A stretch of DNA of 64,000 nt, taken from contig JBJLAJ010000011.1 in assembly GCA_045568775.1 (NCBI GenBank), forward strand, positions 59,239 to 123,238. The letters are read 5' to 3'. The first letter of the stretch is position 1. Every line of letters begins with the position of its first letter. The translations under genes were made by a program, and so were the position numbers. Below are positions 14,717-57,483 of the stretch, one piece after another. This DNA comes from Cytophagales bacterium. Lineage in GTDB: Bacteria > Bacteroidota > Bacteroidia > Cytophagales > MED-G16. The notes under the pieces are model-generated. The model saw nothing but the letters and a program-made list of their open reading frames with translations, searched no databases and was not told the origin of the DNA.

Positions 14717-14762
14717 ATTTTTTTTTTAAAAAGCTTGCAAATTTAATCATTTAAAGTAAAAG

Positions 14763-20233: not shown

Positions 20234-20866
20234 TTAATTTGATAAAACTACATATGAGTTCTTAGATCCAGGAACAGATCCGCCAACGTAAATTAAATTT
20301 TCATTTTTATCAATCTTTAAAATCCTAAGGTTTTGCATTGTTACTTTATCACCACCTGTTCTACCAGCCATCCTCATTCCTTTAAAAACTCTAGAAGGTG
20401 TTGAACCTGCACCAATCGAACCAGGAGCTCTATTCCTGTTATGTTGACCATGTGTATTTTGACCAACACCTGAGAAATTATGTCTTTTCACTACACCTTG
20501 AAATCCTTTTCCTTTAGAAATTGAGGTGACATCAAGAAACTCATTTTCGTTAAAAACATCCGCAAGTTTTACTTCCATACCCAATTTGACCTTACTATCA
20601 AACTCTTTCCTAAAATTTCTAAACTCAACTATCTTCTTTTTAGGTTCTACATTAGAAACCGCAAAATGTCCTTTAGTAGACTTATTAACCTTACTAGACT
20701 TTAAATCATCATAAGATAACTGAATTGCCCTATACCCATCCTTGTCTCTATCTTTGATTTGAGTAACAAAACAAGGCCCTGCTTCAATTACAGTACATCC
20801 CACACTTCTACCCCTAACGTCAAAAACGTTTGTCATACCTAATTTTTTTCCTATAATTCCTGACAT
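20234..20866 (-). CDS. rplC: 50S ribosomal protein L3
   Basis: Starts MSGIIGKKLGMTNVF and contains GKGFQGVVKRHNFSG. Confidence 0.97.
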   Translation of the reverse strand: MSGIIGKKLGMTNVFDVRGRSVGCTVIEAGPCFVTQIKDRDKDGYRAIQLSYDDLKSSKVNKSTKGHFAVSNVEPKKKIVEFRNFRKEFDSKVKLGMEVKLADVFNENEFLDVTSISKGKGFQGVVKRHNFSGVGQNTHGQHNRNRAPGSIGAGSTPSRVFKGMRMAGRTGGDKVTMQNLRILKIDKNENLIYVGGSVPGSKNSYVVLSN

Positions 20867-20896
20867 TTTGTATATATTCTTTACCTAAAATGTGTG

Positions 20897-20927
20897 CAAA
20901 GATAACAATTTAAGATATCCTGTCAAA
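20897..20927 (-). promoter_or_regulatory. candidate Bacteroidetes sigma-A promoter upstream of rplC (-33 TTTG / 19 nt / -7 TATCTTTG)
   Basis: Minus strand reads TTTGacaggatatcttaaattgtTATCTTTG. The G of the -7 box lies 30 nt upstream of the rplC ATG. This matches the published Bacteroides/Flavobacterium consensus TTTG-N19-21-TAnnTTTG. Confidence 0.45.
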
Positions 20928-20972
20928 TAATAGAAAAGTTATTTTTTAATAAAAAATGGACAAATAATTCTA

Positions 20973-23900
20973 CTAATTAGACTTAATAATTTTCCTGATT
21001 TCTAGTAAGTTGTCTCCTTCGTAAATAACTAAAAAAAAGAGTCCTTTATTTATACCATTTAAAAGTATTTCTTCATAGATTTTTGATGTATATAATTTAC
21101 TCCTTTTAGCAAAAACTCTACCATTAGAATCTACTAACTTATAAGTAATAATATCATTAGTTATAAAGTCTGATTCAACAGTGATTTTTTCAGAAGTTGG
21201 GTTAGGATATATTTTTAATCTTATATCATTTTTTTCCAGACCTAATACCGTACCTTCAAACTCTTCAAATAAGATCCAATTTAAATTAAAAGGTGTTTTT
21301 TTAAAGAAAAATCTAAGTTTTCTGTTACCAGACTCCAGATGTATCTTAGGGAAGTCATTGAAAGTAACCCAATCCTGCCAGCCATTAGTAGAAGGGAAAG
21401 ATATAGTATGTAAAACTTCATAGTTAGCAGAATCAATTAGAAGTTGTAATTCAATGGTACCACCATTTGCATAGTCCTCACTCCCATCAGAAGCAACTCT
21501 ATAACTTAAGTCATAAAGACCAGTTTTTGAAACATCTACAACATAATCAACATAATCTGCTGAATCTAAATAACCAATATTCTGACCACCCCCCTCATCT
21601 TCTGTCATTTCTAATGATGTGCCAGACTGGAATATATAATCTTCAGCCTGAATATATCCAGGAATAGGTATCCCAATTGATACTGAATCATCAAAAGCAA
21701 ACCAATTTAAATTAAAAGGACCCTCTATAATCTTTAACCTAAGTTGGTGATTTCCTTCAGAAAGAGTTAATGGTTTACTTGTGCTTTCCCAACTTTGCCA
21801 CCCACTTGTTGTTGGTAAAATCATATTTTGAATAGAATTATAGTTTCCTGTCTCAGGGTCTAATAAACTTAGTTCCAGTTGTCCCCCAGACGACCAATTT
21901 GGATCAGCAGCAGATCTATATGTAACATTATAAGTGCCCGAAGAATTAACTTTAATGTAATAATCAGCATAGTCTCCGTTATCCAAACTTGCAATATTTT
22001 TTCCATCACCCTCGTCTGATGCATTCTCCAATTCCATTCCTTTTTGGAAAAAATAATGTTCAGCTTCAATTTTACCTGGGACATTATGAATATAGGATAT
22101 AGTATTTTTCACAATTTCATCCGAAAATATTTCTAGTAAATTTTCGTCTGTTGATTTAATGGAATTGCCTGAGTAAGAGATCGTAATCACATCACCTGGT
22201 TTAATTTCAACAGCTAGGTTCAAGATTATTGACCTTGGAGAAGTAGAATTTAAAACATCTATTACTTCTACTTCTTGATCATTAATAAAAACTTTAAAGC
22301 CTAATTGACCAACTGAAATAAAGTTTTTAATATTTTTATTAAAATTTATGTTAATTGAATTTTGGTTATAGGTATTAGCAGAGACATAACCTGTTTCTAT
22401 TTCTGAAATATTAGACACCTTAATAAATTCATAAAAACCTAAATTAAATGTACCTCTATTAACATGAAACACTAAACTTTCATCTCCTTCATCTATAACT
22501 AAAGAGTCTAGTTTTAGATCTACCCAATTCTCCCAAGAATCTGTCTTAGGTACATCAATCATTTTAGAAAACTGCTGACCATTTAATTTAAAATAAAAAC
22601 TGCCATCATCATCTTCAGTGGCAACTCTCACATTAACATTATATACCCCAGTTTCATCTAATTGAAAAGAATATTTCATCCATTCATCTTTTTCTATCCA
22701 GCCAACATTATAACCATTTGATTCAGAATCTTTACTTTCTTGAATATCGACATTATCATTCCTTAATGACCACCCATTATTCCAAGCAGAGAAATTGCCA
22801 CCATAATTTGCTTCTGCACCAGCATCATAATATGCTTCTCCCATGATGCCCATATCAAAATCTGAAGCATAAATTTTACCTGGGATTAAATTATTTGCAT
22901 AAGGCACTGTCAAATTTGAAAAAGGCTGCCTAAACATAGCATCAATAATATCTTTATGATAAAAACAATTTTCAATTTTAATATCTTCAGTAAGTTGATT
23001 TAGACCAGCAATAGCATCTTCTTTTGACGGAATTATATTTCCTCCATTCCAATAGTCAACTAGCATTTTATATTTGTCATTATAATTTATAGATAGTGGC
23101 GGTTGAATTGCACCAATTCTCTTTAGAGGCCACCAAGCCCAACCAATTCCATTTTCCTCAAAAACTTTTACAGCATCCCTGTACCAAAAATTTGAGTTTT
23201 CACCTGTTTCTCCTATAAAAAGAGGAACATTCAATGTATCTCTAAGTGGTAACATCCAATCTAAATACCCCTGATCTACTGGGCTCCAATATTTATGGGG
23301 ACTATAAACAAGATTATCATCCCATGGAGGTGTCAAACCAGTAAAATCATTTGCAAACCAGTTACCTTCTATAAACAAGATATGGTTATCTCCTTCAGCT
23401 CTAATTACGTTAGTTAATTGAACATATAAGTTTTTTAGTAGTACTCCACCAGGAATTTCCCAGTTTGGTTCATTAATTAAATCATATCCAGCTACCCATT
23501 GCTCATTTTTATATCTCTGTGATAATCTTTTCCATAGTTCAACAGTCTTATTTTGATTTAATTCACTCTCCCAAAGAGAAGGTTTTGTTGGATCATAATC
23601 TGAAATATCTGCATTGTACCCTTGACCTCCTGGAGCTGCATGGAGATCAATCATAAGATAAATTTCATTTTCTTTACACCAGCTAAGCAAAGAGTCTAAA
23701 AGCTTAAAGCCTACATCTAACTCTGTATAAGAACCTGGGAAAGGTTCTTCCTCTATGGGTACAGTAAATAGGTTATAATGTATTGGTGCTCTCACCAAAT
23801 TAAAACCCCAAGATTTCATCGAGTCTATATCAGTTTTAGTAACATGATTCTTTAACCAATTATTATAAAATTTTTGAGTTTCTTCATCACCAATTAACTC

Positions 23901-24128
23901 TCTGATTTTATCTTTTATTTGATATTGGGTAGAAGAAAATCCCCCTGGAGCCATCATATACCCTTCCTGGACCATCCATCCTCCTAACCCCATACCTCTT
24001 AAAATTATAGTGTCACCTTTCTCATTTATTATAGATTTTCCAGATGTATTAAGAAAGTTTTGAGAGAATGAGTAGTTTGAAAATAATAGAAGAACTACAA
24101 GAAGTTTATAAAATTTAATCATCGGCAT
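20973..24128 (-). CDS. secreted glycoside hydrolase family 5 enzyme with CBM6/35-like modules and a T9SS C-terminal sorting domain
   Basis: 1051 aa. Signal peptide (MPMIKFYKLLVVLLLFSNYSFSQ). GH5 clan-A hallmarks: GLGGWMV, DLHAAPGGQ, the LINEPN acid/base and the FIGETGE nucleophile. Three CBM6/35-like repeats (PGKIYASDFD..., PGKIEAEHYF...NLNWFAF, PGYIQAEDYI...NLNWILF). Por-type tail (LKIYPNPTSEKITVES...FFLVIYEGD). Confidence 0.88.
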   Translation of the reverse strand: MPMIKFYKLLVVLLLFSNYSFSQNFLNTSGKSIINEKGDTIILRGMGLGGWMVQEGYMMAPGGFSSTQYQIKDKIRELIGDEETQKFYNNWLKNHVTKTDIDSMKSWGFNLVRAPIHYNLFTVPIEEEPFPGSYTELDVGFKLLDSLLSWCKENEIYLMIDLHAAPGGQGYNADISDYDPTKPSLWESELNQNKTVELWKRLSQRYKNEQWVAGYDLINEPNWEIPGGVLLKNLYVQLTNVIRAEGDNHILFIEGNWFANDFTGLTPPWDDNLVYSPHKYWSPVDQGYLDWMLPLRDTLNVPLFIGETGENSNFWYRDAVKVFEENGIGWAWWPLKRIGAIQPPLSINYNDKYKMLVDYWNGGNIIPSKEDAIAGLNQLTEDIKIENCFYHKDIIDAMFRQPFSNLTVPYANNLIPGKIYASDFDMGIMGEAYYDAGAEANYGGNFSAWNNGWSLRNDNVDIQESKDSESNGYNVGWIEKDEWMKYSFQLDETGVYNVNVRVATEDDDGSFYFKLNGQQFSKMIDVPKTDSWENWVDLKLDSLVIDEGDESLVFHVNRGTFNLGFYEFIKVSNISEIETGYVSANTYNQNSININFNKNIKNFISVGQLGFKVFINDQEVEVIDVLNSTSPRSIILNLAVEIKPGDVITISYSGNSIKSTDENLLEIFSDEIVKNTISYIHNVPGKIEAEHYFFQKGMELENASDEGDGKNIASLDNGDYADYYIKVNSSGTYNVTYRSAADPNWSSGGQLELSLLDPETGNYNSIQNMILPTTSGWQSWESTSKPLTLSEGNHQLRLKIIEGPFNLNWFAFDDSVSIGIPIPGYIQAEDYIFQSGTSLEMTEDEGGGQNIGYLDSADYVDYVVDVSKTGLYDLSYRVASDGSEDYANGGTIELQLLIDSANYEVLHTISFPSTNGWQDWVTFNDFPKIHLESGNRKLRFFFKKTPFNLNWILFEEFEGTVLGLEKNDIRLKIYPNPTSEKITVESDFITNDIITYKLVDSNGRVFAKRSKLYTSKIYEEILLNGINKGLFFLVIYEGDNLLEIRKIIKSN

Positions 24129-24171
24129 TACGAAGTAATAGCACAGACCATAAAATTCAAAATTTAAAATA

Positions 24172-24477
24172 TTAAACTTTTATTTCAACATCTACTCCAC
24201 TTGGTAATTCAAGTTTCATTAAAGCATCAACTGTCTGACTGCTATTAGAATAAATATCCAATAATCTTTTGTAAGTACAGAGTTTAAATTGTTCTCTAGA
24301 CGTCTTATTGACATGAGGAGACCTCAGAACAGTAAAAATTTCTTTTCTTGTTGGTAAAGGTATTGGACCACTAACTATAGCTCCTGTCGTCTTAACTGCC
24401 TTAACAATCTTCTCAGAACTTTTGTCTACAAGATTATAGTCAAATGATTTTAATTTAATTCTGATTTTTTGTGACAT
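24172..24477 (-). CDS. rpsJ: 30S ribosomal protein S10
   Basis: Starts [13 protein letters not shown] and contains [25 protein letters not shown]. Confidence 0.98.
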
Positions 24478-24483
24478 TTTGTA

Positions 24484-26622
24484 TTAATTTATTTCTCCGT
24501 TATTTTTTTTTATTATTTCTTCAGCAATATTTTTTGGAACACTACTATAATGAGAAAAAGTCAAAGAAGCAGACGCTCTCCCAGAACTTAATGTTCTAAG
24601 ATCAGTCACATACCCAAATAGAGCAGAAAGCGGGACATCAGCCTTAATAATCTGAGAATTACCCTTCATATCCATACCTTTCATTATCCCTCTTCTTTTA
24701 TTAAGATCTCCAGTTACACCACCAGTATACTCATCCGGAGTAGTTACTTCAACAGACATAATAGGCTCCATTAAAACAGGATCAGCTTTTTTAGCAGCCT
24801 GTTTAAATGCTATACCTGCAGCAAGCTCAAAAGAAAGTGAGTCAGAATCAACATCATGAAAAGATCCATCATATAACCTTACCTTTAGAGACTGCACAGG
24901 GAAACCAGCTAGAGGACCATTATTCATTGCATTTTTAAAACCTTTTTCAACAGCAGGAATAAATTCTCTTGGAATTTTACCTCCAGTAATTTGATTTACA
25001 AATTGAAGACCATCACCCTCGGCATCCTCATCTCTAGGTCCTATCTCAAATACGATATCAGCAAACTTACCTCTACCTCCCGATTGTTTTTTATAAACCT
25101 CCTGGTGTTTAGTAGATGATAATATAGATTCTTTGTAAGCAACCTGAGGAGCACCTTGATTTATTTCAACCTTAAACTCTCTTTTAAGTCTTTCAATAAT
25201 AATCTCTAAATGGAGCTCTCCCATTCCTCTAAGAACAGTTTGACCAGTTTCCTCATCAGTATTAACTCTTAATGTAGGGTCTTCTTCAACTAGCTTACTA
25301 ACTGCCATTCCTAATTTATCAACATCAGCTTGTTGTTTAGGTTCTATGGCGTATCCAATTACAGGATCAGGGAAAGACATTGACTCTAAGACAATTTTAG
25401 ATTTTTCATCAGAGAGAGTATCTCCAGTTTTAATATCTTTAAACCCAACACCAGCACAAATATCACCCGCATTAACTGCATCAATAGGGTTTTGCTTATT
25501 TGAATGCATCTGCATAAGCCTAGAAATTCTTTCCTTTTTACCGTTTCTATTATTAAAAATATAAGATCCAGCATCAAGTTTACCAGAGTATACTCTAAAG
25601 AAGCATAGTCTTCCTACAAATGGGTCCGTTGCAATTTTAAAAGCAAGAGCAGCAAATGGCTCATCATTACTTGGTTTTCTAGATGTCTCTTCTTCATTGT
25701 CTGGGTTTGTACCTGATACTGGTGGTAAATCTAGAGGTGAAGGTAGGTATGAACATACAGCATCTAGCAAAGCCTGAACACCTTTGTTTTTAAAAGCAGA
25801 ACCACACATGACTGGAGAGAAAGACATATCAATCACAGCTTTCCTAATCGCAGCCATCATTTCTTCCTTAGTTATGGAATTAGGATCTTCAAAAAACTTT
25901 TCAAGTAAATTGTCATCATATTCAGCAACATTTTCAACTAAATTTTGTCTCCACTCATCAACTGTGTTTTTAAGATTATCTGGTATATCAACTACATTAT
26001 ATGTCATGCCCATATCATCCTCATTCCACACAATTGCTTCGTTAGTAATTAAGTCAACAACACCTTTAAAACCTTCTTCAGCGCCAATTGGAATTTGAAG
26101 AGGAACTGGTTTTGCATTTAACTTTTCCTTAATCTCTTTAACAACATTTAAAAAATCAGCACCAGCTCTATCCATTTTATTAACAAAACAAATTCTAGGT
26201 ACTTTATACTTATCAGCTTGTCTCCATACAGTTTCAGACTGAGGCTCAACACCTGAAACAGCACAAAATAATGCAACTGCACCATCAAGAACTCTAAGTG
26301 ATCTTTCTACCTCAACAGTAAAGTCAACGTGACCAGGAGTATCTATAATATTTACTCTAAAGTCACTTGTGTTATCTATAAGCTTTCCTTGTTTTGTAGG
26401 ATACTTCCAATATGTAGTAGTTGCAGCTGAAGTAATTGTAATTCCTCTTTCTTGTTCTTGCTCCATCCAGTCCATAGTTGCTGCACCATCATGAACTTCA
26501 CCAATTTTATGACTTAAACCTGTGTAATATAATATTCTTTCTGTCGTAGTAGTTTTACCGGCATCAATGTGAGCCATGATTCCGATGTTTCTAAGATAAT
26601 TTAAATCTTTAATTCCTGCCAT
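24484..26622 (-). CDS. fusA: elongation factor G
   Basis: 712 aa. Contains [33 protein letters not shown] and NKMDR. Confidence 0.98.
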
Positions 26623-26631
26623 TATATAAAA

Positions 26632-27099
26632 TTAAAACCTAAAATGAGAGAATGCCTTATTTGCCTCAGCCATTCTATGAGTGTCATCTTTCTTTTTAAC
26701 AGCACCGCCTTCGCCTTTAGATGCTGCAATAATTTCATTGGCAAGCCTTTCTACCATAGACTTTTCATTTCTACTTCTAGCATACTGAATTAACCATTTT
26801 TGACTTAAAGTTATTTTTCTATTTGGCCTTACTTCAATAGGTACTTGGAAGTTAGCACCTCCAACTCTCCTACTTTTAACCTCGACTGAAGGCATAACAT
26901 TATTGAGAGCTTTTTTCCATAATTCGAGGCCTTTTTCCTTAGTTTTATCCTCAACTATCTTTAGTGAATCATAAAAAATTGCATAAGAAACACTCTTTTT
27001 TCCGTCATGCATTAAATTATTAACAAACTGGGTAACTAAGGTATCCTTATATATAGGATCAGGTAAAAAATATCTTTTCTTAGGTTTAGATTTTCTCAT
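26632..27099 (-). CDS. rpsG: 30S ribosomal protein S7
   Basis: Starts [15 protein letters not shown] and contains [16 protein letters not shown] and [15 protein letters not shown]. Confidence 0.98.
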
Positions 27100-27102
27100 T
27101 TA

Positions 27103-27483
27103 CTATTTCTTTGCTTTTGGTCTTTTAGCACCATACTTAGATCTTCTCTGAGTTCTATCATCAACACCTCCAGTATCCAATGTACCTCTTATAACATGAT
27201 ATCTTACACCTGGTAAATCTTTCACTCTACCACCTCTTATTAATACTATAGAGTGTTCCTGCAAGTTGTGACCCTCCCCTGGAATGTAAGCATTAACTTC
27301 TTTACCATGAGATAATCTAACTCTTGCAACTTTTCTCATAGCTGAGTTTGGCTTCTTAGGCGTAGTTGTATACACTCTTGTACATACCCCCCTTTTTTGA
27401 GGACATGAGTCTAAAGCAGGAGACTTTGATTTAGACTTAAGCTTCTTTCTTCCTTTTCTTACTAATTGTTGTATCGTTGGCAT
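27103..27483 (-). CDS. rpsL: 30S ribosomal protein S12
   Basis: Starts [12 protein letters not shown] and contains [16 protein letters not shown] and [14 protein letters not shown]. Confidence 0.98.
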
Positions 27484-27503: not shown

Positions 27504-27534
27504 CAAAAATAGAAATTCATACGTCTTAAACAAA
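27504..27534 (-). promoter_or_regulatory. candidate str-operon promoter (-33 TTTG / 19 nt / -7 TATTTTTG)
   Basis: Minus strand reads TTTGtttaagacgtatgaatttcTATTTTTG, ending 20 nt upstream of the rpsL ATG. Exact match to the Bacteroidetes consensus spacing. Confidence 0.5.
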
Positions 27535-39112: not shown

Positions 39113-39137
39113 CTAAAATGCAGGCCAACGGCCTGCA
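39113..39137 (-). terminator. rho-independent terminator after tuf
   Basis: Minus strand reads TGCAGGCC-gtt-GGCCTGCA (GC-rich 7-8 bp stem) followed by TTTTAGTAT. It lies 73 nt downstream of the tuf stop and abuts tRNA-Trp. Confidence 0.6.
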
Positions 39138-39209
39138 AATTTAGAATAATTGTTATTATTTAACAAATAAATAAGTTAAATAATTAGTTAAAAAAAGTTT
39201 TATAAAATT

Positions 39210-40414: not shown

Positions 40415-40445
40415 CAAATTTAACTTATTTATATAATAATACAAT
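40415..40445 (-). promoter_or_regulatory. candidate tuf promoter (-7 TAAATTTG with partial -33 ATTG, 19-nt spacer)
   Basis: Minus strand reads ATTGtattattatataaataagtTAAATTTG, ending 17 nt upstream of the tuf ATG. The -33 element matches only TTG. Confidence 0.35.
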
Positions 40446-40758: not shown

Positions 40759-40789
40759 CAAAATTATATTCTTTTTTATTTATTACAAA
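40759..40789 (-). promoter_or_regulatory. candidate promoter of the tRNA-Tyr/Gly/Thr-tuf unit (-33 TTTG / 19 nt / -7 TAATTTTG)
   Basis: Minus strand reads TTTGtaataaataaaaaagaataTAATTTTG, ending 45 nt upstream of the tRNA-Tyr 5' end. Exact consensus and spacing. Confidence 0.5.
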
Positions 40790-46423: not shown

Positions 46424-47141
46424 AGCATATTTTGCTGGTGACTTTCATCTAGGAAGACCTAATAAAGAATCATCATCTAATAGAGAAAAAAAAATAATTT
46501 CCTGGTTAAATAATATTAGTAAAGACGCTCAAGAAGTTTTTCTGATGGGAGATGTTTTTGATTTTTGGTTTGAATATAGAAATGTCATCCCTAAAGAGAA
46601 TTTAAGATTTCTTTCTACTATTTCTAGATTAATAGATCAAGGAGTTAATTTTCATTATTTTTTAGGTAATCGTGATATGTGGGTTCTGAACTACTTTCAA
46701 GAACTTGGAATAAAAGTGTACGATAAACCTCAAAAATTTCTTTTAAATAAAAAAAACATTCTTGTAGGCCATGGTGATGGAATAGGGAAAGGTGATTTAG
46801 GCTTTAAATTTCTAAAGTTAATTTTTAAAAATAAAATCTGTCAATTTTTATTCAGATGGATTCACCCTGACATTGGAATACCTCTCGGAAAATTTCTCTC
46901 AGGTTCAAAAAAAATGATGAATATTTCAGAAAACGCAAAACAAAATGATAAAAGAATTATAGATTATTGCATAAAATATAGAAAAGAAAATAACATTGAT
47001 GTCTTTGTTTTTGGTCATAGTCATGTCAGAACTAAGAAAAAACTATCTGAAGGTTGTTATTATTTTAATTGTGGAGAATGGATGACAGGTTCGCCTTACC
47101 TTGAATCTGATGGAAAAAATTTTGAACTGAAGTCGAGCTAA
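46386..47141 (+). CDS. lpxH: UDP-2,3-diacylglucosamine diphosphatase
   Basis: Metallophosphoesterase motifs [25 protein letters not shown] and GHSH. The track starts at TTG 46362. I prefer ATG 46386 (ATG 46371 is also possible). All candidates overlap the ftsH end, so the start is uncertain. Confidence 0.8.
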
Positions 47142-48118
47142 CCTATAGATTTTAAAAGTTCATTTCTTTGTTTCTCCCTCAATTCTATCTCAGCTAAATT
47201 ATTATTAGACATTATAAGTGATTTAAGTTCCTCATTTAGATCTTTAAAATTATTTAATTGATTAGGAGTAAATGAGATGTCTAATTTTGAAATATTATTT
47301 TCCAGATCATAACCTAGTTTAGTTAAAATATTGTTATTGATTGACTCAAAAATTAACAGTTCCTTTTCGCTCAATTCTTTTTTGAACTTTTCTTTATTAT
47401 TCCTAATTAACGGCTTTGATAAATTCTCCCATAATCCACCAGAATCTGAAGCTTTCTTAGATTCATTAGATAAATAAAAGTTTAAAAAATCTTTATTATA
47501 CTTAATATCATACTTTATACAAAGATTATTTAGAACCATAGCTGGATCTTCAAGTAAGTCCTCATACTTCACAGAAAAAAAATTTTCAATAGGTGTATTT
47601 TTTTTAATATTATCACAAATAACCTGATCAGAATACCATTTTTTTGCAAGAAAATATATGTGCTTATCACCAATTGGAGCTTTTTTAAAAGAAGAAGCAA
47701 CATCTCTCCCGTCTCTATATATATATATATAAATAGGATTCAAATTTTGAAATTCTTTGATATTATAGAACTTAAAGTTTTGGAGACTTTTACAGCACCA
47801 AAAAGTGGGATTATTATATGTATATATTGCCCTAAATATTTCAAAAAGGTTCCTGTTCTCAATAGAGCTTAAGATTCTTTCAGGAGTTGGTAAATCGCTC
47901 CATTTAATTGGATTATTTTTGATCCATATCAACATATCATCAATCAATCTTTGTGTGTTTTTCCTATTATCTAGATTATTGTATTTATCTATCAAAGGAT
48001 AAAATGTATTAAGTAAATGGGGAGGATGAGGAGCAAAAACATTTTCAAACTCATTTAGCATCAATCTAAACAAATTAGATCCAGATCTTTGAGTTCCAAT
48101 TATTTGAAAAAATTTCAT
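47138..48118 (-). CDS. sulfotransferase family protein (PAPS-type fold)
   Basis: 326 aa with no signal peptide. 5'-PSB-like loop IIGTQRSGSNL and 3'-PB-like YRDGRDVASSF. Its stop overlaps the convergent lpxH stop (CTAA). Confidence 0.8.
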   Translation of the reverse strand: MKFFQIIGTQRSGSNLFRLMLNEFENVFAPHPPHLLNTFYPLIDKYNNLDNRKNTQRLIDDMLIWIKNNPIKWSDLPTPERILSSIENRNLFEIFRAIYTYNNPTFWCCKSLQNFKFYNIKEFQNLNPIYIYIYRDGRDVASSFKKAPIGDKHIYFLAKKWYSDQVICDNIKKNTPIENFFSVKYEDLLEDPAMVLNNLCIKYDIKYNKDFLNFYLSNESKKASDSGGLWENLSKPLIRNNKEKFKKELSEKELLIFESINNNILTKLGYDLENNISKLDISFTPNQLNNFKDLNEELKSLIMSNNNLAEIELREKQRNELLKSIG

Positions 48119-48121
48119 TGA

Positions 48122-49291
48122 TTATATTTCTAAAAAGTATCCTAAGAGTCCAAAAGTTAAAATTAAAAACAATGGGTGGATTTTAGTTTTATTTAAAATA
48201 ATAAAAGAAAATATACATATAGAAATACTTAAAACATTAAAAGATTCTAATTGTTTAAACATAATTATATAACCAGAATAATATATTAATCCTATTATAC
48301 CAATTTTAAACCCTTTAATAATGAGTTTCACAGTATTATTTTTTTTCACGAAGTAATACACCCTAGAAAAAAAAATAATTACAACAGAAGAGGGCAAGAA
48401 TATAGAAAGTGTTGAAATAAAAGCTCCTGTTATTCCATTAATCTTATATCCGATAAAAGTTGCTGTTATTAAAATAGGGCCTGGAGTTATTTGACCCATA
48501 GCGATAGAGTCAATAAATTCTCTTTTTGTAAGCCATCCAATTTGTTCAACAATAATTTTATCGAGATAGGGTATAAACACATATCCTCCCCCAAATAATG
48601 TGAGAGAGATATTAGCAAAAACTTTTGAAAGATTAAAATTAAGGGAATTAATAGGTGCATTATTCAAAAAAACAAATAGTAGAATCATAATTAATGAAGC
48701 AATAACAATTCCCTTTATCCTTATAAATGCTTTCTTGGGGTTAGTAATTTTTTTTATTTTATCTCCATTATAAAGTAAGTTAAGACCACCGCATATCAGC
48801 AATGGCAAAATGATTGAAATATAGCCTTTTATTAATGAGGTCAGAGCAAAACTTAAGATTACAAGTAGAAGTGAAAATATTTTGTCTTTTGAGTCTTTAT
48901 AAAACCCAAATCCAACAGAAAAAATAACTGCTGAAACAACAGGCATTACTCCATCAAAGAATGATGAGAAACCAGGAATATTTCTAGAGTTTAGATATAG
49001 ATGTGAAAATATCACCATTATAATAAATGAAGGAAGTAAAACTCCAATAAATGATATAACAGCTCCTTTCCATCCTCTAATTAGAAACCCAATATAAGAC
49101 GCAACATTTATAGCCATTGGGCCAGGCAGAAAACTTGCCATTGTAATTGCATCTAATATTTTTTTTTTGCTTAAAATTTTTTTTCTGACAGAGAACTCAT
49201 GTTGAATCATAGCTATCAACATCATATAACCACCGAAAGATATTGTCCCTGTTTTTAAAAAAGTAAAGAATAATTTAAAATAACTCATCAA
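48122..49291 (-). CDS. chrA: CHR-family (chromate ion transporter-like) membrane protein
   Basis: 389 aa, duplicated-domain polytopic protein. Contains FLKTGTISFGGYMMLIAMIQHE and, in the second half, SLTLFGGGYVFIPYLDKIIVEQ...GQITPGPI. Confidence 0.8.
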   Translation of the reverse strand: MMSYFKLFFTFLKTGTISFGGYMMLIAMIQHEFSVRKKILSKKKILDAITMASFLPGPMAINVASYIGFLIRGWKGAVISFIGVLLPSFIIMVIFSHLYLNSRNIPGFSSFFDGVMPVVSAVIFSVGFGFYKDSKDKIFSLLLVILSFALTSLIKGYISIILPLLICGGLNLLYNGDKIKKITNPKKAFIRIKGIVIASLIMILLFVFLNNAPINSLNFNLSKVFANISLTLFGGGYVFIPYLDKIIVEQIGWLTKREFIDSIAMGQITPGPILITATFIGYKINGITGAFISTLSIFLPSSVVIIFFSRVYYFVKKNNTVKLIIKGFKIGIIGLIYYSGYIIMFKQLESFNVLSISICIFSFIILNKTKIHPLFLILTFGLLGYFLEI

Positions 49292-49329
49292 AATCTTTTT
49301 GAAGCTCTAAACAATACCTAGAATTAAAT

Positions 49330-50643
49330 TTACAATAACTTTTTATTGTCAATATAATATACTCTATAAAATGAATGATCACTTGATAAATTCCATAAAA
49401 TTTTTCCTGAAATATCAGATATTATTGTTTTATTATTTACTGAACTTGAAAAAAGATAATTTTCATCATCAATTAAGTAAACACTACCCTGCTTGAAAGT
49501 AAATAAGTTATCTGGAAGGAACACACTCTTTTCATGATTAAATTTTTTATTTATCTCATCTAAAGAGAAAACAAGAGCTCGTGATGACTTCCTATATTCT
49601 GACGACCCATTATCAAAGAGCATATATTGACTTTTGTTAACCTTATGTATTGCATGTTGTTGATAGAAAACATCTTTATTATCTAAATTAAAATCACCTC
49701 CTTTTCCTAGTCTCCACATTACATCTCCACTAATAGAATTAATTTTCCAAATTTGATCAAAATTTCTAAATGAAATAAGATAATTCCCATCAGAATCTAT
49801 ATCAATTCCATTTCCATGACTCCAATCATCACGGATTAAATATTGTTCTCTATCCGGTTCTATATGATCAAAAATATTCCATCTCCATATTTTCTCGCCA
49901 TTTTCATCATATACAACAATCCCATCACCCATTAAGGAATCAATTCCATTTTTATAATAATTATAGTATTCATATGTAAGGCCAACAAAATATGATTTTT
50001 TGTTTTCACTAAATTTTAAAATATCATGGTGAAAACTATGTGAGTTAGAAATTTTTGAAAATAATGTGTCACCTTCAAAGCTTACTTCATTAATAATATT
50101 TCTCTTTGATAAGGAAATATAAGTGTTTTTTAATCCTATATTAAATGGTCTAGATAAGACTGAATCACTAATACTATACCATACAATTTCGCCATCATCA
50201 TCCATCATAAACTGAATACCAGGATCTTCTTGAGTTCTAAACAAAAGAAAACCATCAAAAGAAAATGAAGAGTCTTTTACTAAATCAAAAGAAGGAAAAA
50301 CATTTGGTAGACTTCTTGTCTTAAATGAATATAAAATAGAAGAATTAATATTTTCTGATTTTGAAAATTCATTTATTTTAAACAAATAATTGGATGATGG
50401 TTTTAGATAAGGTAATACTATATCAAAAGAATCTCCCTGATAAGTCAAAGAGGAAATAACCTCATTTTGATCTAACCAATATGAGATGTTTGTTGATGTA
50501 TTAAAATCTGTTTTAAAGTTCACATGATATTTTGAATGATTGTAACCTGGTAAATCAACTGAGACCTGACTGAAATTATTTTTTTTAGAGCAAGATATTA
50601 CTAGAAATAAAATAAGAAATGAATAGTTTTTAGAAATCATCAT
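49330..50643 (-). CDS. arylsulfotransferase (ASST) family lipoprotein
   Basis: 437 aa. Lipobox LFLVISC-SKKNN. N-terminal beta-sandwich followed by propeller-type repeats. Contains the ASST-like stretch DWSHGNGIDIDSDGNYLISFRNFDQIWKINSISGDVMWRLG...QQHAIHKV...MLFDNGS. Confidence 0.7.
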   Translation of the reverse strand: MMISKNYSFLILFLVISCSKKNNFSQVSVDLPGYNHSKYHVNFKTDFNTSTNISYWLDQNEVISSLTYQGDSFDIVLPYLKPSSNYLFKINEFSKSENINSSILYSFKTRSLPNVFPSFDLVKDSSFSFDGFLLFRTQEDPGIQFMMDDDGEIVWYSISDSVLSRPFNIGLKNTYISLSKRNIINEVSFEGDTLFSKISNSHSFHHDILKFSENKKSYFVGLTYEYYNYYKNGIDSLMGDGIVVYDENGEKIWRWNIFDHIEPDREQYLIRDDWSHGNGIDIDSDGNYLISFRNFDQIWKINSISGDVMWRLGKGGDFNLDNKDVFYQQHAIHKVNKSQYMLFDNGSSEYRKSSRALVFSLDEINKKFNHEKSVFLPDNLFTFKQGSVYLIDDENYLFSSSVNNKTIISDISGKILWNLSSDHSFYRVYYIDNKKLL

Positions 50644-51910
50644 TTAAAATAATTTTAGTAGATCTTGCTGAGCCATCTTCAAAATGGATCAAAAGTAAAT
50701 GAATACCAACAGCTAAATTATTAAGTTTTAATATAATTTTTTTATGGTTATCATTAATATTCTTAGAAAAAATAATTTCACCTGATAAATTAAAGAATTC
50801 TATTCTATCAATATTTTTAGAAGTTTCGTTTAGTACAATTAAATTTCTATTTGGAGGTAAGGGATTAGGGTACACAGATACTATATTATCTATAAATTCA
50901 TTTCCTGCTACAATACTTTTCTCTTCAAATAAAAGTTGCCCCTTTGCAAAAGCGTCTTCACCTATATTCTTACCCATTATTCTGCCAGGGATATCATCGA
51001 TATAAGGATGAATTCCTCCCCAAATACGAGAAAGAGAACATTGATCAGCAGCATCTCTGTATGTTGCCCACTGTAATTTCATATCAACAGAGGGTCCTTT
51101 TTCAAAGACAAGAAAATTATTTTTAGGGATGATAAATTCTCCAATTCCACCTGGAAAGAATTCATTTCCAGTTAATTTTTCTAATATTATTGCAGCTGCA
51201 CTAGAGTATGTTGAATGCCCTGAAATATATCCTGCAAATGGAGGAGTAACAAAACTTGGTCTTTGATATGGCCACCAATTTTCTGCAAGTATCCACCCAA
51301 CTCCTTTCTCGACATCAGTAGAATCAGCTTCATTAAATCCTTTCCAAGTGAATAATTTAACTTTTCCTAAATTCTTATTATTATCTCCAACTAGAGGGTC
51401 ATTGATTGAAACCATTTCTATATATCCATCAATTAAAGGGAACCCATTTGGGCTGTAATTTGTTGAATCTTTATAAGTAGACTGCCCATTTTCAGATAAA
51501 TATCTGATAACAGAAATTGGCCTAGCATAATCATAATATCCTTTTGATCCCCACGCAGAAATTGCAGCATCATGCATAGCTCCACCCATTAAAAAATAAG
51601 ATTTTATATCCCAATCAAGTCTATCTAACTCTTGTCCTGTTCCCTTAAATTTTCTTATTAGATCATCATCATCATTTACTTCATTTAATATTACAAACCA
51701 ATGTCCAGGAGGTGTCTCGGAATCAGGTCCATCAGCCCAGAATTCAGCAAGAACTCTTGTGTAATCACCCCTTGGCACAATTTGTTCTGTGTATTTCTGG
51801 TTATTAAAGGGATTTATCTCATGTCCAAGACCTATATCTCCACCATCAAAATAATTATATAGATTATGATAGTCTAAAAAATCATTAGGGTAAGAAGTTA
51901 GAGTTTCCAA
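50630..51910 (-). CDS. vanadium-haloperoxidase-like PAP2 domain with T9SS C-terminal sorting domain (3' portion of a split gene)
   Basis: 426 aa, opening at a TTG with no signal peptide. Contains AEFWADGPDSETPPGHW and a complete PAP2 triad: K-x6-RP (KGYYDYARP), SGH (YISGHSTYS) and SR-x5-H-x3-D (SRIWGGIHPYIDD). Tail VSVYPNPLPPNRNL...LLLIHFEDG. Its N-terminal domain half lies in the upstream ORF. Confidence 0.8.
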   Translation of the reverse strand: METLTSYPNDFLDYHNLYNYFDGGDIGLGHEINPFNNQKYTEQIVPRGDYTRVLAEFWADGPDSETPPGHWFVILNEVNDDDDLIRKFKGTGQELDRLDWDIKSYFLMGGAMHDAAISAWGSKGYYDYARPISVIRYLSENGQSTYKDSTNYSPNGFPLIDGYIEMVSINDPLVGDNNKNLGKVKLFTWKGFNEADSTDVEKGVGWILAENWWPYQRPSFVTPPFAGYISGHSTYSSAAAIILEKLTGNEFFPGGIGEFIIPKNNFLVFEKGPSVDMKLQWATYRDAADQCSLSRIWGGIHPYIDDIPGRIMGKNIGEDAFAKGQLLFEEKSIVAGNEFIDNIVSVYPNPLPPNRNLIVLNETSKNIDRIEFFNLSGEIIFSKNINDNHKKIILKLNNLAVGIHLLLIHFEDGSARSTKIILNDDF

Positions 51911-54701
51911 TCGAATTAGGAGATATATCTAGAAGAACCCCGTCAGACCTATCAAGATGAGCCCCCCAAACTGACACCATAGAAAATGAATTTTTAAATA
52001 AGGAATCTAATTTACCTTGATTTAAGGTGTCAAGAAGAGGCGGTGGCCCAGGATCATGATAAATTTTATAGATATTATCATCTCTCAACTTAATAACTAA
52101 GTCTTCTTCTTTGAGAGCAAAAGGGGTCACGTTTCCCCATTCTGGGGAAATAAATTCAGGAATCCCCTCAATTAAGTTTCCTGACTGATCAATAAAATTT
52201 GAAATCTTTAGTGGTTGCCATCTATTAGGATCTATAATGTCAGGGTTACCATAAGTATCTAAATCAAGTGGCGGATTAAGCGGTGAATAATAGTTACTCG
52301 AGTAATCATTTACCTCATTTGAATTATCAAGAAATCCATAATCTGAATATATTTTATTTAAATAATTCCCTATAGATCTTGGGTCACCTGACAAATAATC
52401 TAACTTATCATAATTGATATCATAATCTAATGTTATCATGAGTGAGTCTACTCTTTTATAAGTATCAATTATACCAACTGATTTTTTAAATCTGTGTCTT
52501 ATGAAATTATATGAAGCATAAGAAATGATTTTTTCTATATATTCATCATCATGAACATATGTAGGGTATTCGAAAGGATAGTTAGTTTCATTAATAGTTT
52601 TATCGAGTAAAAAAGGAGTTATATTTTTATTATTAATTAATTTTTCCTTGATAACAAATGCATCATACATTACTGAAGAAAGGTGAAACAAGTTTCTAGC
52701 ATGAATAGGTGGTCTTGCTAAATCATCCCTAATTGCTTGTAATAACACTTCCATCCATTTTCTCGCAATAGACTGACTAGTAAAGTCACTGTTTCCTGAA
52801 TTTTTAAGTAGATTTTTAATCTCAAATGTTTTAGTTAAGTGACATCCTTTTTCATCTCTTACAGTGATTGAGTGTGTACCTGAACTTATATTAGAAAATA
52901 TAAATTTATTTTTAAAGTATGTTCCTCCGTCTAATGATAAATAATAATCATTATCTAAGTTGATGTTATTTATCTGAATTGAGCTAGTGTGCTGGTTCGT
53001 AATATCTTTGACAATAACATCAAAATCTGGGGGAGATGTTTTTTCAATTATTATAGTATCAGAAGAGAACATAGCACCGTATTCATCATAAACATTAACA
53101 AAATAATTTCCACCTTGACTAATACTTATATTTTGAGTTGTATCTCCTGTAGACCATTGGTATCTATGATAGTAACCAGTCTCTAAGGATAACAGACTTC
53201 CATCACAAAAAGAATCACTAACTGAATATATCTTTGGAATTAAAGAAGTAGAGCCCTCGTTTATAGTGATCAATCTATTTCCTTCTATTTGATAAAAAGC
53301 ATCAATCTCTCCAGATGGCCAATACACTTTTAAACTATCAACTGTTTGGCTGTTGCCAAGACCAATAAATAAAGTATTAGAGTTCTGTGAAAGGTAACCC
53401 TCTGTAGAAAATTTACCGCGTGTTATAGTTTTATCTTCAACATAAATAACTACCCTTGATCCATACGCATCACTATTTGAGTTGAAACCAACTAAATTAA
53501 CTTTTAGCCAGTTATTAGTTCCAGAGTAAATATTTTTAAAAAGGAAGGAATTAAAAGGCTCCATGTTTAATACTACAATATCAGGATAACCATCATTATT
53601 TATGTCTCCTACTGCATTCCCATAACTAGATACAGTATCAGAATCTAAGCCTACTGAAATATTTTGCTCAAAATATTTTCCAAAAATATTTGAATAATAC
53701 GCACTAGAATTCACATTAGACCCAACAAGAGACCCACTTACATAAAGGTCCTCATACCCATCTAAATCAAAATCTTCAAACTGAGCTCCCCATCCCTCAG
53801 CATTAAAAGGGACTCCTTTTTCATCAGCACGTTCTGTAAAAGTAAGATCTTGATTATTTACAAATAACTTATTTCCTTCTTCTAAATTTGTAGAATAGAT
53901 ATCAAAAAAAGAATCATTATTAAAGTCTCCTACCGTCACTGACATAGCATCCATCTTAACACCAGTATTAGACTGAGTACTTATATTTGAAAAAGTAGAA
54001 TCTAAATTATTGTAGTAAAGGGAGTTCCCAGAAGACTTATCATTAGCAATGTAAAGATCTTGGACATTATTATTATCTATATCTATAAAAGTAGCACAGA
54101 AAGGTAACTTGTTAATCTCTGAAATAGATGAAATGTTAGTTATATCAATAAAAGATTTTCCTTCATGGTTTAAGTATAAACTTACAGTATTATTTATACT
54201 ATCTCCTGACCTGTATGTCTGCAATAAATCTAGGTATCCATCATTATTAATATCAGACCATGAGGAACCAAAAGAGTTTGAAACAGAATCTGGTAAATTA
54301 ACAGAAGACGTTATATCAATAAAATTAAGAAATCCATTGTTCTCATAAAGTTTATTTTTACCACTAAATGAAGAAACATACAAGTCTTTATCAAAATCAT
54401 TATCAAAATCAATCCAAAGTACTTGCTTTATTTGATAAGGAAAGTCAATGCCAAAAGACAAAGGATATAATTTGTCTCCATTATTTTTTAAAAAAAGTAT
54501 GGAAGTATTTCCATTCGTCGGTATTGTTATATCATCTAACCCGTCTAGATCAAAGTCAACAAAACTTACACCAGCACCTGAAACTCCTTGAAGATATGAA
54601 TGATTGAAATCAAGAGATGAAGATATCTCATTGAAATATAGTTGTGAGAATAATGGGTATTTAGTAGCGAGTAAAATAAAAAAAATAAGATATTTTTTCA
54701 T
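51885..54701 (-). CDS. FG-GAP/VCBS repeat + ASPIC/UnbV (CRTAC1-like) protein carrying the N-terminal half of the haloperoxidase-like domain (5' portion of a split gene)
   Basis: The track starts at TTG 54719, but ATG 54701 gives the signal peptide MKKYLIFFILLATKYPLFSQ. Repeated FDLDGLDD / INNDGYLD / FNNDSFFD / INNDGYPD FG-GAP calcium loops. UnbV motif GSRVVIYVED...GYLSQNSNTLFIGLG...VYWPSG. Ig-like modules. Then ARKWMEVLLQAIRDDLARPPIHARNLFH...NRWQPL...ISPEWGNVTPF. Confidence 0.8.
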   Translation of the reverse strand: MKKYLIFFILLATKYPLFSQLYFNEISSSLDFNHSYLQGVSGAGVSFVDFDLDGLDDITIPTNGNTSILFLKNNGDKLYPLSFGIDFPYQIKQVLWIDFDNDFDKDLYVSSFSGKNKLYENNGFLNFIDITSSVNLPDSVSNSFGSSWSDINNDGYLDLLQTYRSGDSINNTVSLYLNHEGKSFIDITNISSISEINKLPFCATFIDIDNNNVQDLYIANDKSSGNSLYYNNLDSTFSNISTQSNTGVKMDAMSVTVGDFNNDSFFDIYSTNLEEGNKLFVNNQDLTFTERADEKGVPFNAEGWGAQFEDFDLDGYEDLYVSGSLVGSNVNSSAYYSNIFGKYFEQNISVGLDSDTVSSYGNAVGDINNDGYPDIVVLNMEPFNSFLFKNIYSGTNNWLKVNLVGFNSNSDAYGSRVVIYVEDKTITRGKFSTEGYLSQNSNTLFIGLGNSQTVDSLKVYWPSGEIDAFYQIEGNRLITINEGSTSLIPKIYSVSDSFCDGSLLSLETGYYHRYQWSTGDTTQNISISQGGNYFVNVYDEYGAMFSSDTIIIEKTSPPDFDVIVKDITNQHTSSIQINNINLDNDYYLSLDGGTYFKNKFIFSNISSGTHSITVRDEKGCHLTKTFEIKNLLKNSGNSDFTSQSIARKWMEVLLQAIRDDLARPPIHARNLFHLSSVMYDAFVIKEKLINNKNITPFLLDKTINETNYPFEYPTYVHDDEYIEKIISYASYNFIRHRFKKSVGIIDTYKRVDSLMITLDYDINYDKLDYLSGDPRSIGNYLNKIYSDYGFLDNSNEVNDYSSNYYSPLNPPLDLDTYGNPDIIDPNRWQPLKISNFIDQSGNLIEGIPEFISPEWGNVTPFALKEEDLVIKLRDDNIYKIYHDPGPPPLLDTLNQGKLDSLFKNSFSMVSVWGAHLDRSDGVLLDISPNSIGNSNFLP

Positions 54702-54710
54702 CACTCTAAA

Positions 54711-54748
54711 AATAAACAAAAAAAAAGGTAACGACTTACGCCGTTACC
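54711..54748 (-). terminator. rho-independent terminator after the SusCD-lipoprotein operon
   Basis: Minus strand reads GGTAACG-gcgtaagt-CGTTACC followed by TTTTTTTTGTTTATTTTT. It lies 38 nt after the lipoprotein stop, and the T-tract ends about 10 nt before the next ATG (54701). Confidence 0.65.
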
Positions 54749-54785
54749 CTTTTAAATCATATATGTAAATATATGTAGTACCTAG

Positions 54786-55718
54786 TTAGTTCAAGTCAGG
54801 CCAATTCTGTCCATCATTTCTGGTAAGTACAGAAACGGCACCTTCACCATAGTCATTAGTCCAATCAATAGTTAGCGCATTACCTGTTGAGCTAACATCA
54901 TGAAATGTATAAACTTCTGACCATCTAGAAGCACCTACTGGTGATAAAATACCACAAGCATCTTGTACTTTAAGTGTTCCACCTGGATTAGTTGAACCGG
55001 CTCCGTAACAAGCTAAATAGATTCCCCAGTCAAACTGACCAGCAGGCTCTATATATAAGTTGTCACCACCAGATTTAACCCAAGAACCAGAGTAGTTTGA
55101 AGTTGCAGTACAACCCCATCCACCTTGGCCAACACTTACTGCGTCCCAACTTGACTCAAGGTCAGAAGGACACACGACAGAAACGTTAAGTCTATATAAT
55201 GCACCAAATGCATTAGAAGACTGTAAGTTTGGTCCTGTATTGTTATAATCGTAAGTAGTACCATCAGACTTAGTTATAGTAAACCAAAATCTGAAGTAGT
55301 TACCGCCATCAATACCAGTAATATCTTTCCCTACTGCTGCCATAGTAGCAGAAAAAGTTAAACTGATGTCATTACTAAGGTATCCATCAGCATTCTTTAC
55401 GAATTCTGACGAAGATATAGTTCTGAATTGAGTTCTGGCAACACTATTAGCGCCACCACCGATAACGTCCACATATTCTACATCAATATCAAACTCAGTG
55501 ATATTTCCACCCTGAGCTTCATCATAATATTCTACATGCATGTCAATTGAAGAACCAGCTACATCGAAGTAATTGAATTTACCAGTCTGTGACATCTTTC
55601 TAGCGTATGCACCATATTGCATTTCTGGAAAAAGTTCAACCGGTAAAACAGGATCACCACATGATATAGCAGTTGTCATTGCTATGAATGCTACGAATAA
55701 CTTTTTTAAATTTTTCAT
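54786..55718 (-). CDS. hypothetical surface lipoprotein in the SusE/F position of the locus
   Basis: 310 aa. Lipobox MTTAISC-GDPV. The C-terminal half carries 5 further Cys (CPSD, WGCTA, LACYGAG, DACG). I recognise no family. Lies 18 nt downstream of susD. Confidence 0.6.
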   Translation of the reverse strand: MKNLKKLFVAFIAMTTAISCGDPVLPVELFPEMQYGAYARKMSQTGKFNYFDVAGSSIDMHVEYYDEAQGGNITEFDIDVEYVDVIGGGANSVARTQFRTISSSEFVKNADGYLSNDISLTFSATMAAVGKDITGIDGGNYFRFWFTITKSDGTTYDYNNTGPNLQSSNAFGALYRLNVSVVCPSDLESSWDAVSVGQGGWGCTATSNYSGSWVKSGGDNLYIEPAGQFDWGIYLACYGAGSTNPGGTLKVQDACGILSPVGASRWSEVYTFHDVSSTGNALTIDWTNDYGEGAVSVLTRNDGQNWPDLN

Positions 55719-55736
55719 AATTGTTTTAATTTAAAA

Positions 55737-57464: not shown

Positions 57465-57483
57465 TATATATAAAATTTAAAAA

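Follow-up and report, generated by a model that had tools for sequence, protein, structure and literature searches.

The 64,000-nucleotide stretch of a Cytophagales bacterium genome analysed here (contig JBJLAJ010000011.1, hereafter the window) carries, between the ribosomal-protein genes rpsJ (S10) and rplC (L3), a gene for a predicted secreted glycanase. We put the probability at roughly three in four that this gene stems from a single old insertion at the boundary between an rpsJ-terminated and an rplC-led transcription unit, that it has since been inherited vertically while remaining dispensable, and that it is transcribed both from a promoter of its own and by read-through. Under this reading, a gene encoding a glycoside hydrolase family 5 (GH5) enzyme with three CBM6 modules, secreted through the type IX secretion system (T9SS), would have entered the rpsJ-rplC spacer in the ancestor shared by a clade of low-GC planktonic marine Cytophagales, landing upstream of a pre-existing rplC promoter. 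Because the gene would stand upstream of that promoter, expression of the downstream ribosomal-protein genes would have been left undisturbed, which would make the site a permissive one. Vertical inheritance under purifying selection in many species would have followed, and the gene, being dispensable, would have been lost on at least two occasions, in one case step by step and in another by a clean deletion. Its transcription would draw on two sources, namely a weak promoter with its -7 box just after the rpsJ stop codon and its -33 TTG in the last rpsJ codons, and read-through from the rpsL promoter.

The glycanase open reading frame (ORF; 1051 aa, 20973-24128) lies on the minus strand between rpsJ (24172-24477; S10 confirmed by Pfam) and rplC (20234-20866; Pfam Ribosomal_L3). 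The ORF map and the sequence reproduce exactly the coordinates given in an earlier reading made from the letters alone (the sequence-only reading), and together with Pfam and NCBIfam they bear out the gene, domain make-up and position described there. A 43-nt spacer (24129-24171) separates the ORF from rpsJ, and a 106-nt spacer (20867-20972), the downstream ~80 nt of which are the pre-existing rplC promoter region, separates it from rplC. Gene order on the minus strand runs rpoC, a DUF3467 gene, rpsL, rpsG, fusA, rpsJ, the glycanase ORF, rplC, rplD and the remaining cluster. The str-type unit rpsL-rpsG-fusA-rpsJ (24172-27483, minus strand), in an order common to all related loci, comprises rpsL (27103-27483), rpsG (26632-27099) and fusA (24484-26622; EF-G confirmed by Pfam) and has rpsJ as its last gene; rplC is the first gene of the rplC-rplD-rplW-rplB... 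unit.

The rpsJ-glycanase-rplC arrangement is found in all 29 independent contigs whose GH5 protein is at least 61% identical to that of the window. An exact look-up of the window's glycanase protein found no identical copy, and the identical S10 protein, indexed in 796 blocks of the collection, served as query instead. All ten places retrieved with it (nine loci with DNA, L001-L009, and one returned without DNA) carry a GH5-CBM6-Por gene of 1006-1050 aa between rpsJ and rplC. They come from unrelated projects, including two NCBI assemblies (GCA_965661035.1 and GCA_902510625.1), TARA, JGI and several ENA assemblies. The nine loci are 77-99% identical to the window in nucleotide sequence over 16.3 kb and therefore represent several species; a divergent orthologue (L090), with a GH5 protein 61% identical, occupies the same rpsJ-rplC position. 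When metagenomes were scanned with the glycanase itself, S10 stood immediately upstream in 18 of 18 loci at 65% identity or above, with L3 downstream where the contig reaches, and neither S10 nor L3 adjoined the gene in any of the 62 loci at 54% identity or below.

The host is an uncultured low-GC marine Cytophagales lineage, MED-G19-like. NCBI names attached to identical S10, L3 and EF-G proteins are 'Cytophagales bacterium', 'Flammeovirgaceae bacterium' and 'Rhodothermaeota bacterium MED-G19', and the genomes nearest by L3, among the matches listed, are Cytophagales; the assumption of Flavobacteriales, made from the letters alone, is wrong. MED-G16/18/19, from the Mediterranean photic zone, were introduced as a new group of low GC content, about 30% (bioRxiv 10.1101/134635). 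One locus shows a peculiarity of its own: in L007:5386-7993 (JGI 3300046163, contig Ga0494222_1177) S10 is 100% and L3 91% identical to the window, and S7 is just 50% and EF-G just 60% identical. Two explanations offer themselves, a swap of rpsG-fusA for a distant copy in this lineage or a chimeric join in the contig upstream of rpsJ.

A perfect TTTG-N19-TATCTTTG promoter, overlooked in the sequence-only reading, stands in the 106-nt spacer before rplC (TTTGACA...N19...TATCTTTG, then an invariant GCACACATTTT; exact pattern match at 20897-20927, minus strand). A promoter of the same Bacteroidetes type, TTTG-N19-TATTTTTG, lies upstream of rpsL at the start of the rpsL-rpsG-fusA-rpsJ unit (27504-27534, minus strand, exact pattern match), and the two are among five sites in the window that fit the Bacteroidetes consensus TTTG-N17-23-TAnnTTTG. 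Relaxed to TTG-N17-22-TAnnTTTG, the pattern has eight exact sites on this strand, and because six of them fall in spacers directly upstream of genes, it marks real promoters in this genome. Besides rpsL and rplC, the six precede the tRNA-Tyr/Gly/Thr cluster (40759-40766), tuf (40415-40422), tRNA-Trp/secE-nusG (39136-39143) and, between rpsN and rpsH in the spc region, rpsH (14738-14745), all on the minus strand. The long translation-gene supercluster thus appears to be cut into several putative promoter-led units, one of them inside the spc region.

Across 15 lineages with saturated synonymous sites, the rplC promoter block (TTATTTGA...AAATTGTTATCTTTGCACACATTTT) does not vary, showing 19 invariant columns in a row; the lineages include relatives with a pseudogene, relatives with a 20-codon remnant, insert-free relatives and the outgroup L097; the block of the 106-nt spacer is nearly invariant across the intact, pseudogene, remnant and insert-free relatives. 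Other Cytophagales have an rpsJ-rplC spacer of 180-266 nt, in which a strong GC hairpin and T-tract terminator directly follows rpsJ (-26 kcal/mol, z = -3.7 in L012) and TTG-N19-TAnnTTTG stands downstream of the terminator, about 62 nt before rplC. Since the rplC promoter is present in the insert-free relatives, in the outgroup and in other Cytophagales, it is older than the insertion. The glycanase gene is, on these predicted signals, placed between two transcription units, rpsL-...-rpsJ and the rplC-led unit. The sequence-only reading had set it inside the S10 operon, which is misleading: a canonical promoter stands before rplC itself and is unchanged in every relative, even where the insert was never present or has been lost. 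The E. coli-type str/S10 arrangement (rpsL-rpsG-fusA-tufA, then the S10 leader and rpsJ-rplC...) has the same gene families in the same overall order and likewise has a transcription-unit boundary in this neighbourhood. Unlike it, Bacteroidota have rpsJ attached to the fusA side, and the Cytophagales boundary, a terminator followed by a promoter, falls between rpsJ and rplC, not before rpsJ. At the gathering threshold, Rfam returned only four tRNAs in the window; around the rplC leader it had no match at E<=1, and an S10-leader-like RNA was not detected with it. A scan for sigma-70-type promoters and terminators was uninformative (46 promoter-like sites vs 41 expected, and one spurious terminator).

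Pairwise ratios of nonsynonymous to synonymous substitution (dN/dS) for the glycanase are 0.09-0.24 at dS of 0.8-1.9, compared with 0.02-0.04 for EF-G and 0.03-0.11 for L3; the gene has been under purifying selection over a long time, for reasons that we can only infer. The limits of the insertion were mapped by looking up three S10 variants in the same 90% cluster. The rpsJ-rplC gap is only 98-100 nt in L094-L096 and only 124-127 nt in L097-L099, and L094 and L095 retain the promoter alone, with no glycanase. An 836-nt spacer in L100 and L101 can be aligned with the L090 gene over codons ~22-60 and ~900-1046 and contains a frameshift and an in-frame stop, that is, a pseudogene with an internal deletion of ~2.5 kb. 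L102 and the Cytophagales metagenome-assembled genome (MAG) L010 keep just the last 20 codons (FLIILEGDRLLEVRKIIIDK and the stop codon), and behind these stand the same 3' flank and promoter. A neighbour-joining tree of L3+L4+L23+L2 (786 columns, 100 bootstraps) makes L094/L095 the sister of the intact L004 (100% bootstrap) within a clade of intact loci (92%), makes L010/L100/L101 the sister of the intact L090 (100%), and places L098, which has no insert, outside all of these (100%). Parsimony favours a single insertion and then at least two independent losses, one of which is seen at two stages. Of the description as an old, fixed insertion, the age stands, as do the ameliorated composition and the lack of repeats; fixation does not, given the pseudogene in L100/L101, the remnant in L010/L102 and the absence from L094/L095.

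The same junction is interrupted elsewhere in the phylum. A survey with L3 as query was made over the best 80 Bacteroidota genome loci listed, 75 of which were assessable; the window's own species is not among the loci listed. The rpsJ-rplC gap is below 600 nt in 53 of the 75 and 1.4-5.8 kb in five, and in the remaining 17 the 7 kb upstream of rplC contain no rpsJ. Gaps among the loci listed are 24-47 nt in Bacteroidales, in agreement with the sequence-only reading's statement that rpsJ abuts rplC, and mostly 100-300 nt in Flavobacteriaceae. Separation by unrelated genes (>1 kb or >7 kb; 22/75) occurs in Chryseobacterium/Kaistella, Pedobacter/Pelobium, Bernardetiaceae and a Flammeovirgaceae MAG, the very circumstance that the sequence-only reading had named as one that would make the position unremarkable. 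The intervening genes encode a GLPGLI-family protein in Kaistella, a low-affinity iron permease in Chryseobacterium (up to 5.8 kb and four genes), and TauE, DUF1634 and a 211-aa protein in Pedobacter; directly upstream of rplC in other loci stands a gene for a DeoR regulator, a DUF3078 protein, an outer-membrane beta-barrel protein or RecO. These interruptions share with the window the junction, the strand logic and the placement of rplC after the inserted genes. They differ from it in being independent events in other families with unrelated cargo, and no glycoside hydrolase is among the cargos at the other Bacteroidota junctions examined. A literature search found no description of a glycanase gene between rpsJ and rplC; variation of ribosomal clusters, including detached rpsJ and interspersed genes, has reportedly been catalogued earlier, for instance by Coenye and Vandamme in 2005.

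At least 15 Flavobacteriaceae rpsJ-rplC spacers share a conserved element of another kind, which is absent from the window (L039:6881-6970, L044:6815-6910, L059:6892-6985, L062, L066, L072, L074-L079 and L083). In order, it consists of ACAUGUCC, a short stem that often has tandem G-A, GGAAAAACGG, an A-rich stretch of ~15 nt, a hairpin and a U-tract. Six of the ten pairs of the hairpin show compensatory changes, and no Rfam family matches at the gathering threshold. The element looks like a candidate for an undescribed ribosomal-protein leader or attenuator before rplC.

The glycanase begins with a hydrophobic N-terminus typical of a signal peptide (MPMIKFYKLLVVLLLFSNYSFSQ; aa 1-22, 24063-24128; this and the following features are on the minus strand). 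A significant match to Pfam Cellulase/GH5 (PF00150; aa 86-335, 23124-23873; 104.6 bits vs a cut-off of 23.5) and the conserved residues of clan GH-A identify the catalytic domain as GH5, and GH5 chains in the PDB match the protein down to 3e-36. R113, H117, N219-E220, H278, Y280, E307 and W333 do not vary among 19 homologues (39-88% identity), with the acid/base E220 in NEP (LINEPN motif) and the nucleophile E307 in the GETGE motif. CBM_6 (PF03422) matches three stretches with 196 bits in total, overlapping CBM_35_2 in Pfam; the three modules lie at about aa 407-568 (22425-22910), 684-815 (21684-22079) and 825-955 (21264-21656), and CBM6 chains in the PDB align at about aa 407-503, 685-815 and 825-955. 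The T9SS type-A C-terminal sorting domain (aa 973-1048, 20985-21212) is recognized by Por_Secre_tail (PF18962; 29.9 bits vs a cut-off of 27) and by NCBIfam TIGR04183 (28.3 bits vs 23). The gene is intact, its product looks catalytically competent, and with both a signal peptide and a type-A sorting domain the protein is a predicted T9SS cargo. In L003, L006, L008 and many database entries (e.g. P0015-P0038), the start has been called at an internal Met, giving 1006 aa and losing the signal peptide; an in-frame upstream ATG, giving about 1050 aa with the signal peptide, is present in these loci.

The nearest PDB sequences are a putative beta-xylosidase (9ku5, 3e-36), a glucan 1,3-beta-glucosidase (8z2w), CelC and Candida exo-beta-1,3-glucanases, and the CBM modules match CBM6 domains of cellulases, xylanases and laminarinases; a literature search on the PDB neighbour AaBglC found nothing. 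More than 6000 homologues at E<1e-10 have the GH5-CBM6-T9SS architecture. One of them, 46% identical, adjoins a Y_Y_Y-type regulator, and another, 42% identical (P0104, from a Flavobacteriaceae MAG), sits in a polysaccharide utilization locus (PUL) with SusC, SusD, an SGBP-like protein and GH30. For PULs that combine a CBM6-containing GH5_46 with GH30_1 and/or GH16, laminarin or other beta-glucans have been proposed as the target, a PUL type that the authors themselves describe as experimentally unverified (Krueger et al. 2019, PMC6794258). Given the SusC/SusD/GH30 context of P0104 and this PUL type, the protein is probably a secreted or surface-attached beta-glucanase, and by analogy its most likely substrate would be a beta-glucan of the laminarin type. 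Membership in GH5_46 is a guess from the architecture and from the PUL context of the 42%-identical homologue. The window's protein shares the domain logic of CBM6-containing GH5 enzymes of marine Bacteroidota (GH5_46-type), with an N-terminal GH5, several CBM6 and a T9SS sorting domain. Unlike the PUL enzymes of that type, its gene has no adjacent SusC/SusD, GH16, GH30 or regulator; it is an orphan with ribosomal genes on both sides.

The 43-nt spacer before the glycanase had been said to lack a TAnnTTTG box, which is literally so; its best match, a -7-like box with one mismatch, is AAATTTTG at 24158-24165. A -33 TTG (24186-24188) lies at 20-nt spacing from this box within the conserved last codons of rpsJ; in this genome, a stretch of that size would hold a site with no more than one mismatch by chance at a probability of ~0.055. 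Most orthologous spacers keep the same layout of stop codon, a few nucleotides, TTTTGA, 12-15 nt, TGTGCATTTACTTCGTR and ATG. The box is perfect in three of them (TATTTTTG in L109 and L140, TAATTTTG in L118) and has one mismatch in several other loci besides the window. An AU-rich hairpin (-15 kcal/mol, z = -2.2) spans the rpsJ stop codon. As a terminator after rpsJ it is a weak candidate, with no clean U-tract behind it, and it is not separable from the promoter explanation. Neither a terminator scan nor folding found a GC-rich or intrinsic terminator after rpsJ in this clade, which makes read-through from the rpsL promoter plausible. Codon usage separates translation genes from other genes so faintly in this genome, with scores within +/-0.05, that it gives no indication of an expression level. 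Most likely, a weak promoter of its own and read-through from the rpsL promoter would both contribute to transcription of the gene.

A misjoin in assembly or binning that set a piece of a glycanase contig between rpsJ and rplC has nothing in its favour beyond the prior that the arrangement is unusual, and we give it practically no credence. These junctions recur in no fewer than 29 independent contigs, produced in different projects with different assemblers (NCBI MAGs, TARA, JGI and other ENA assemblies), orthologues at this site have diverged to 61-98% protein identity, and gene remnants lie at exactly the same site in relatives; mis-assembly was rejected on the strength of the contigs and the remnants, and the sequence-only reading was right to treat the arrangement as genuine. 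That the gene arrived recently on a mobile element targeting the ribosomal locus is very improbable, although the gene's nearest homologues beyond the clade reach ~50% identity at best and are found in other Bacteroidota, in surroundings that are not ribosomal, so that it must once have been brought in from outside. The ORF list and the repeat search show no integrase, transposase or tRNA at the locus, and no meaningful flanking repeats, direct or inverted, were found, just short chance matches and the expected internal CBM6 similarity. GC content is flat across the region (0.27-0.35) with no break, and at third codon positions the glycanase ORF (0.207) is indistinguishable from the adjacent genes (0.19-0.20); the lack of a composition break and of repeats had been noted from the letters alone and holds. 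The marks of a mobile element or genomic island (integrase or transposase, flanking repeats, compositional deviation) are thus absent from the gene. Divergence among the orthologues moreover tracks that of the ribosomal proteins, dS is saturated, and a recent mobile-element origin was rejected on these grounds.

Another alternative is a single long str/S10 transcript that starts at the rpsL promoter and includes the glycanase as a promoterless internal cistron, reached by read-through, with secretion of the enzyme coupled to the growth-rate control of the translation machinery. It is possible, if doubtful. The spacer of only 43 nt, the missing intrinsic terminator after rpsJ here as opposed to the strong one in other Cytophagales, the absence of the strict TAnnTTTG consensus from the window's spacer, and the same strand and tight spacing in 29 of 29 loci all speak for it. 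It has to contend, however, with the invariant canonical rplC promoter, which predates the insertion and by which the downstream genes do not depend on one long transcript, and with the near-consensus -7 box and correctly spaced -33 TTG, conserved in position and perfect in three orthologous spacers. Codon usage of the glycanase also falls on the non-ribosomal side of a very weak gradient, its repeated loss argues against tight functional integration, and the coupling to growth rate is itself pure conjecture. We likewise consider it rather unlikely that, in these streamlined planktonic Cytophagales, the glycanase has lost any substrate-responsive regulation and is expressed mainly by rpsL-fusA-rpsJ read-through, its export being constitutive and scaled to translational capacity; if true, such 'operon hitch-hiking' would regulate an extracellular enzyme without a dedicated regulator.

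Several points also weigh against the reading that we prefer, that of an old insertion at a unit boundary with a promoter of its own plus read-through. The mismatch in the window's -7 box falls at a position normally important for activity, and L090, the intact locus that has diverged furthest, has another spacer, of 90 nt, in which no clear box is seen. Conservation of the spacer could equally be explained by the AU-rich hairpin at the rpsJ stop codon, and both the promoter before the glycanase and the read-through are what we infer from sequence. The tree was built by neighbour joining from only four linked ribosomal proteins, and the 80-locus junction sample is not random and is biased. The laminarin guess draws on the context of a 42%-identical homologue and on an experimentally unverified PUL type.

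The protein belongs to a very common class of carbohydrate-active enzymes of marine Bacteroidota, and unrelated genes have entered this junction repeatedly in the phylum; the present case stands out by its cargo, a large secreted glycanase, by the long retention of that gene in an abundant planktonic clade and by the well-preserved deletion series. The locus shows no new mechanism and no new protein family and is an evolutionary curiosity, though a natural case that cleanly illustrates how a gene is gained, kept for long and eroded in steps at one defined site. Since the lineage is widespread in ocean metagenomes, the way in which it deploys this enzyme, one of the few glycanases that it secretes, matters for carbon turnover in the sea. 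The rpsJ/rplC junction, in Cytophagales a promoter-bearing boundary and across Bacteroidota a recurrent insertion point, behaves in a way that is useful to know when ribosomal clusters serve as synteny anchors or binning markers.

The SusC/SusD pair nearest to the glycanase lies about 31 kb away (55737-60696) and opens a further minus-strand locus of the window at 47138-60696. The pair (57484-60696 and 55737-57464) is followed in order by genes for a 310-aa protein without a Pfam match, a 944-aa FG-GAP/ASPIC protein and a protein with a T9SS C-terminal domain (50630-51910), another such protein of the window, which has a weak VCPO-like match. An arylsulfotransferase, a chromate-transporter-family protein and a sulfotransferase come next, and the whole is possibly a glycan or sulfated-substrate locus, unlinked to the GH5 gene.

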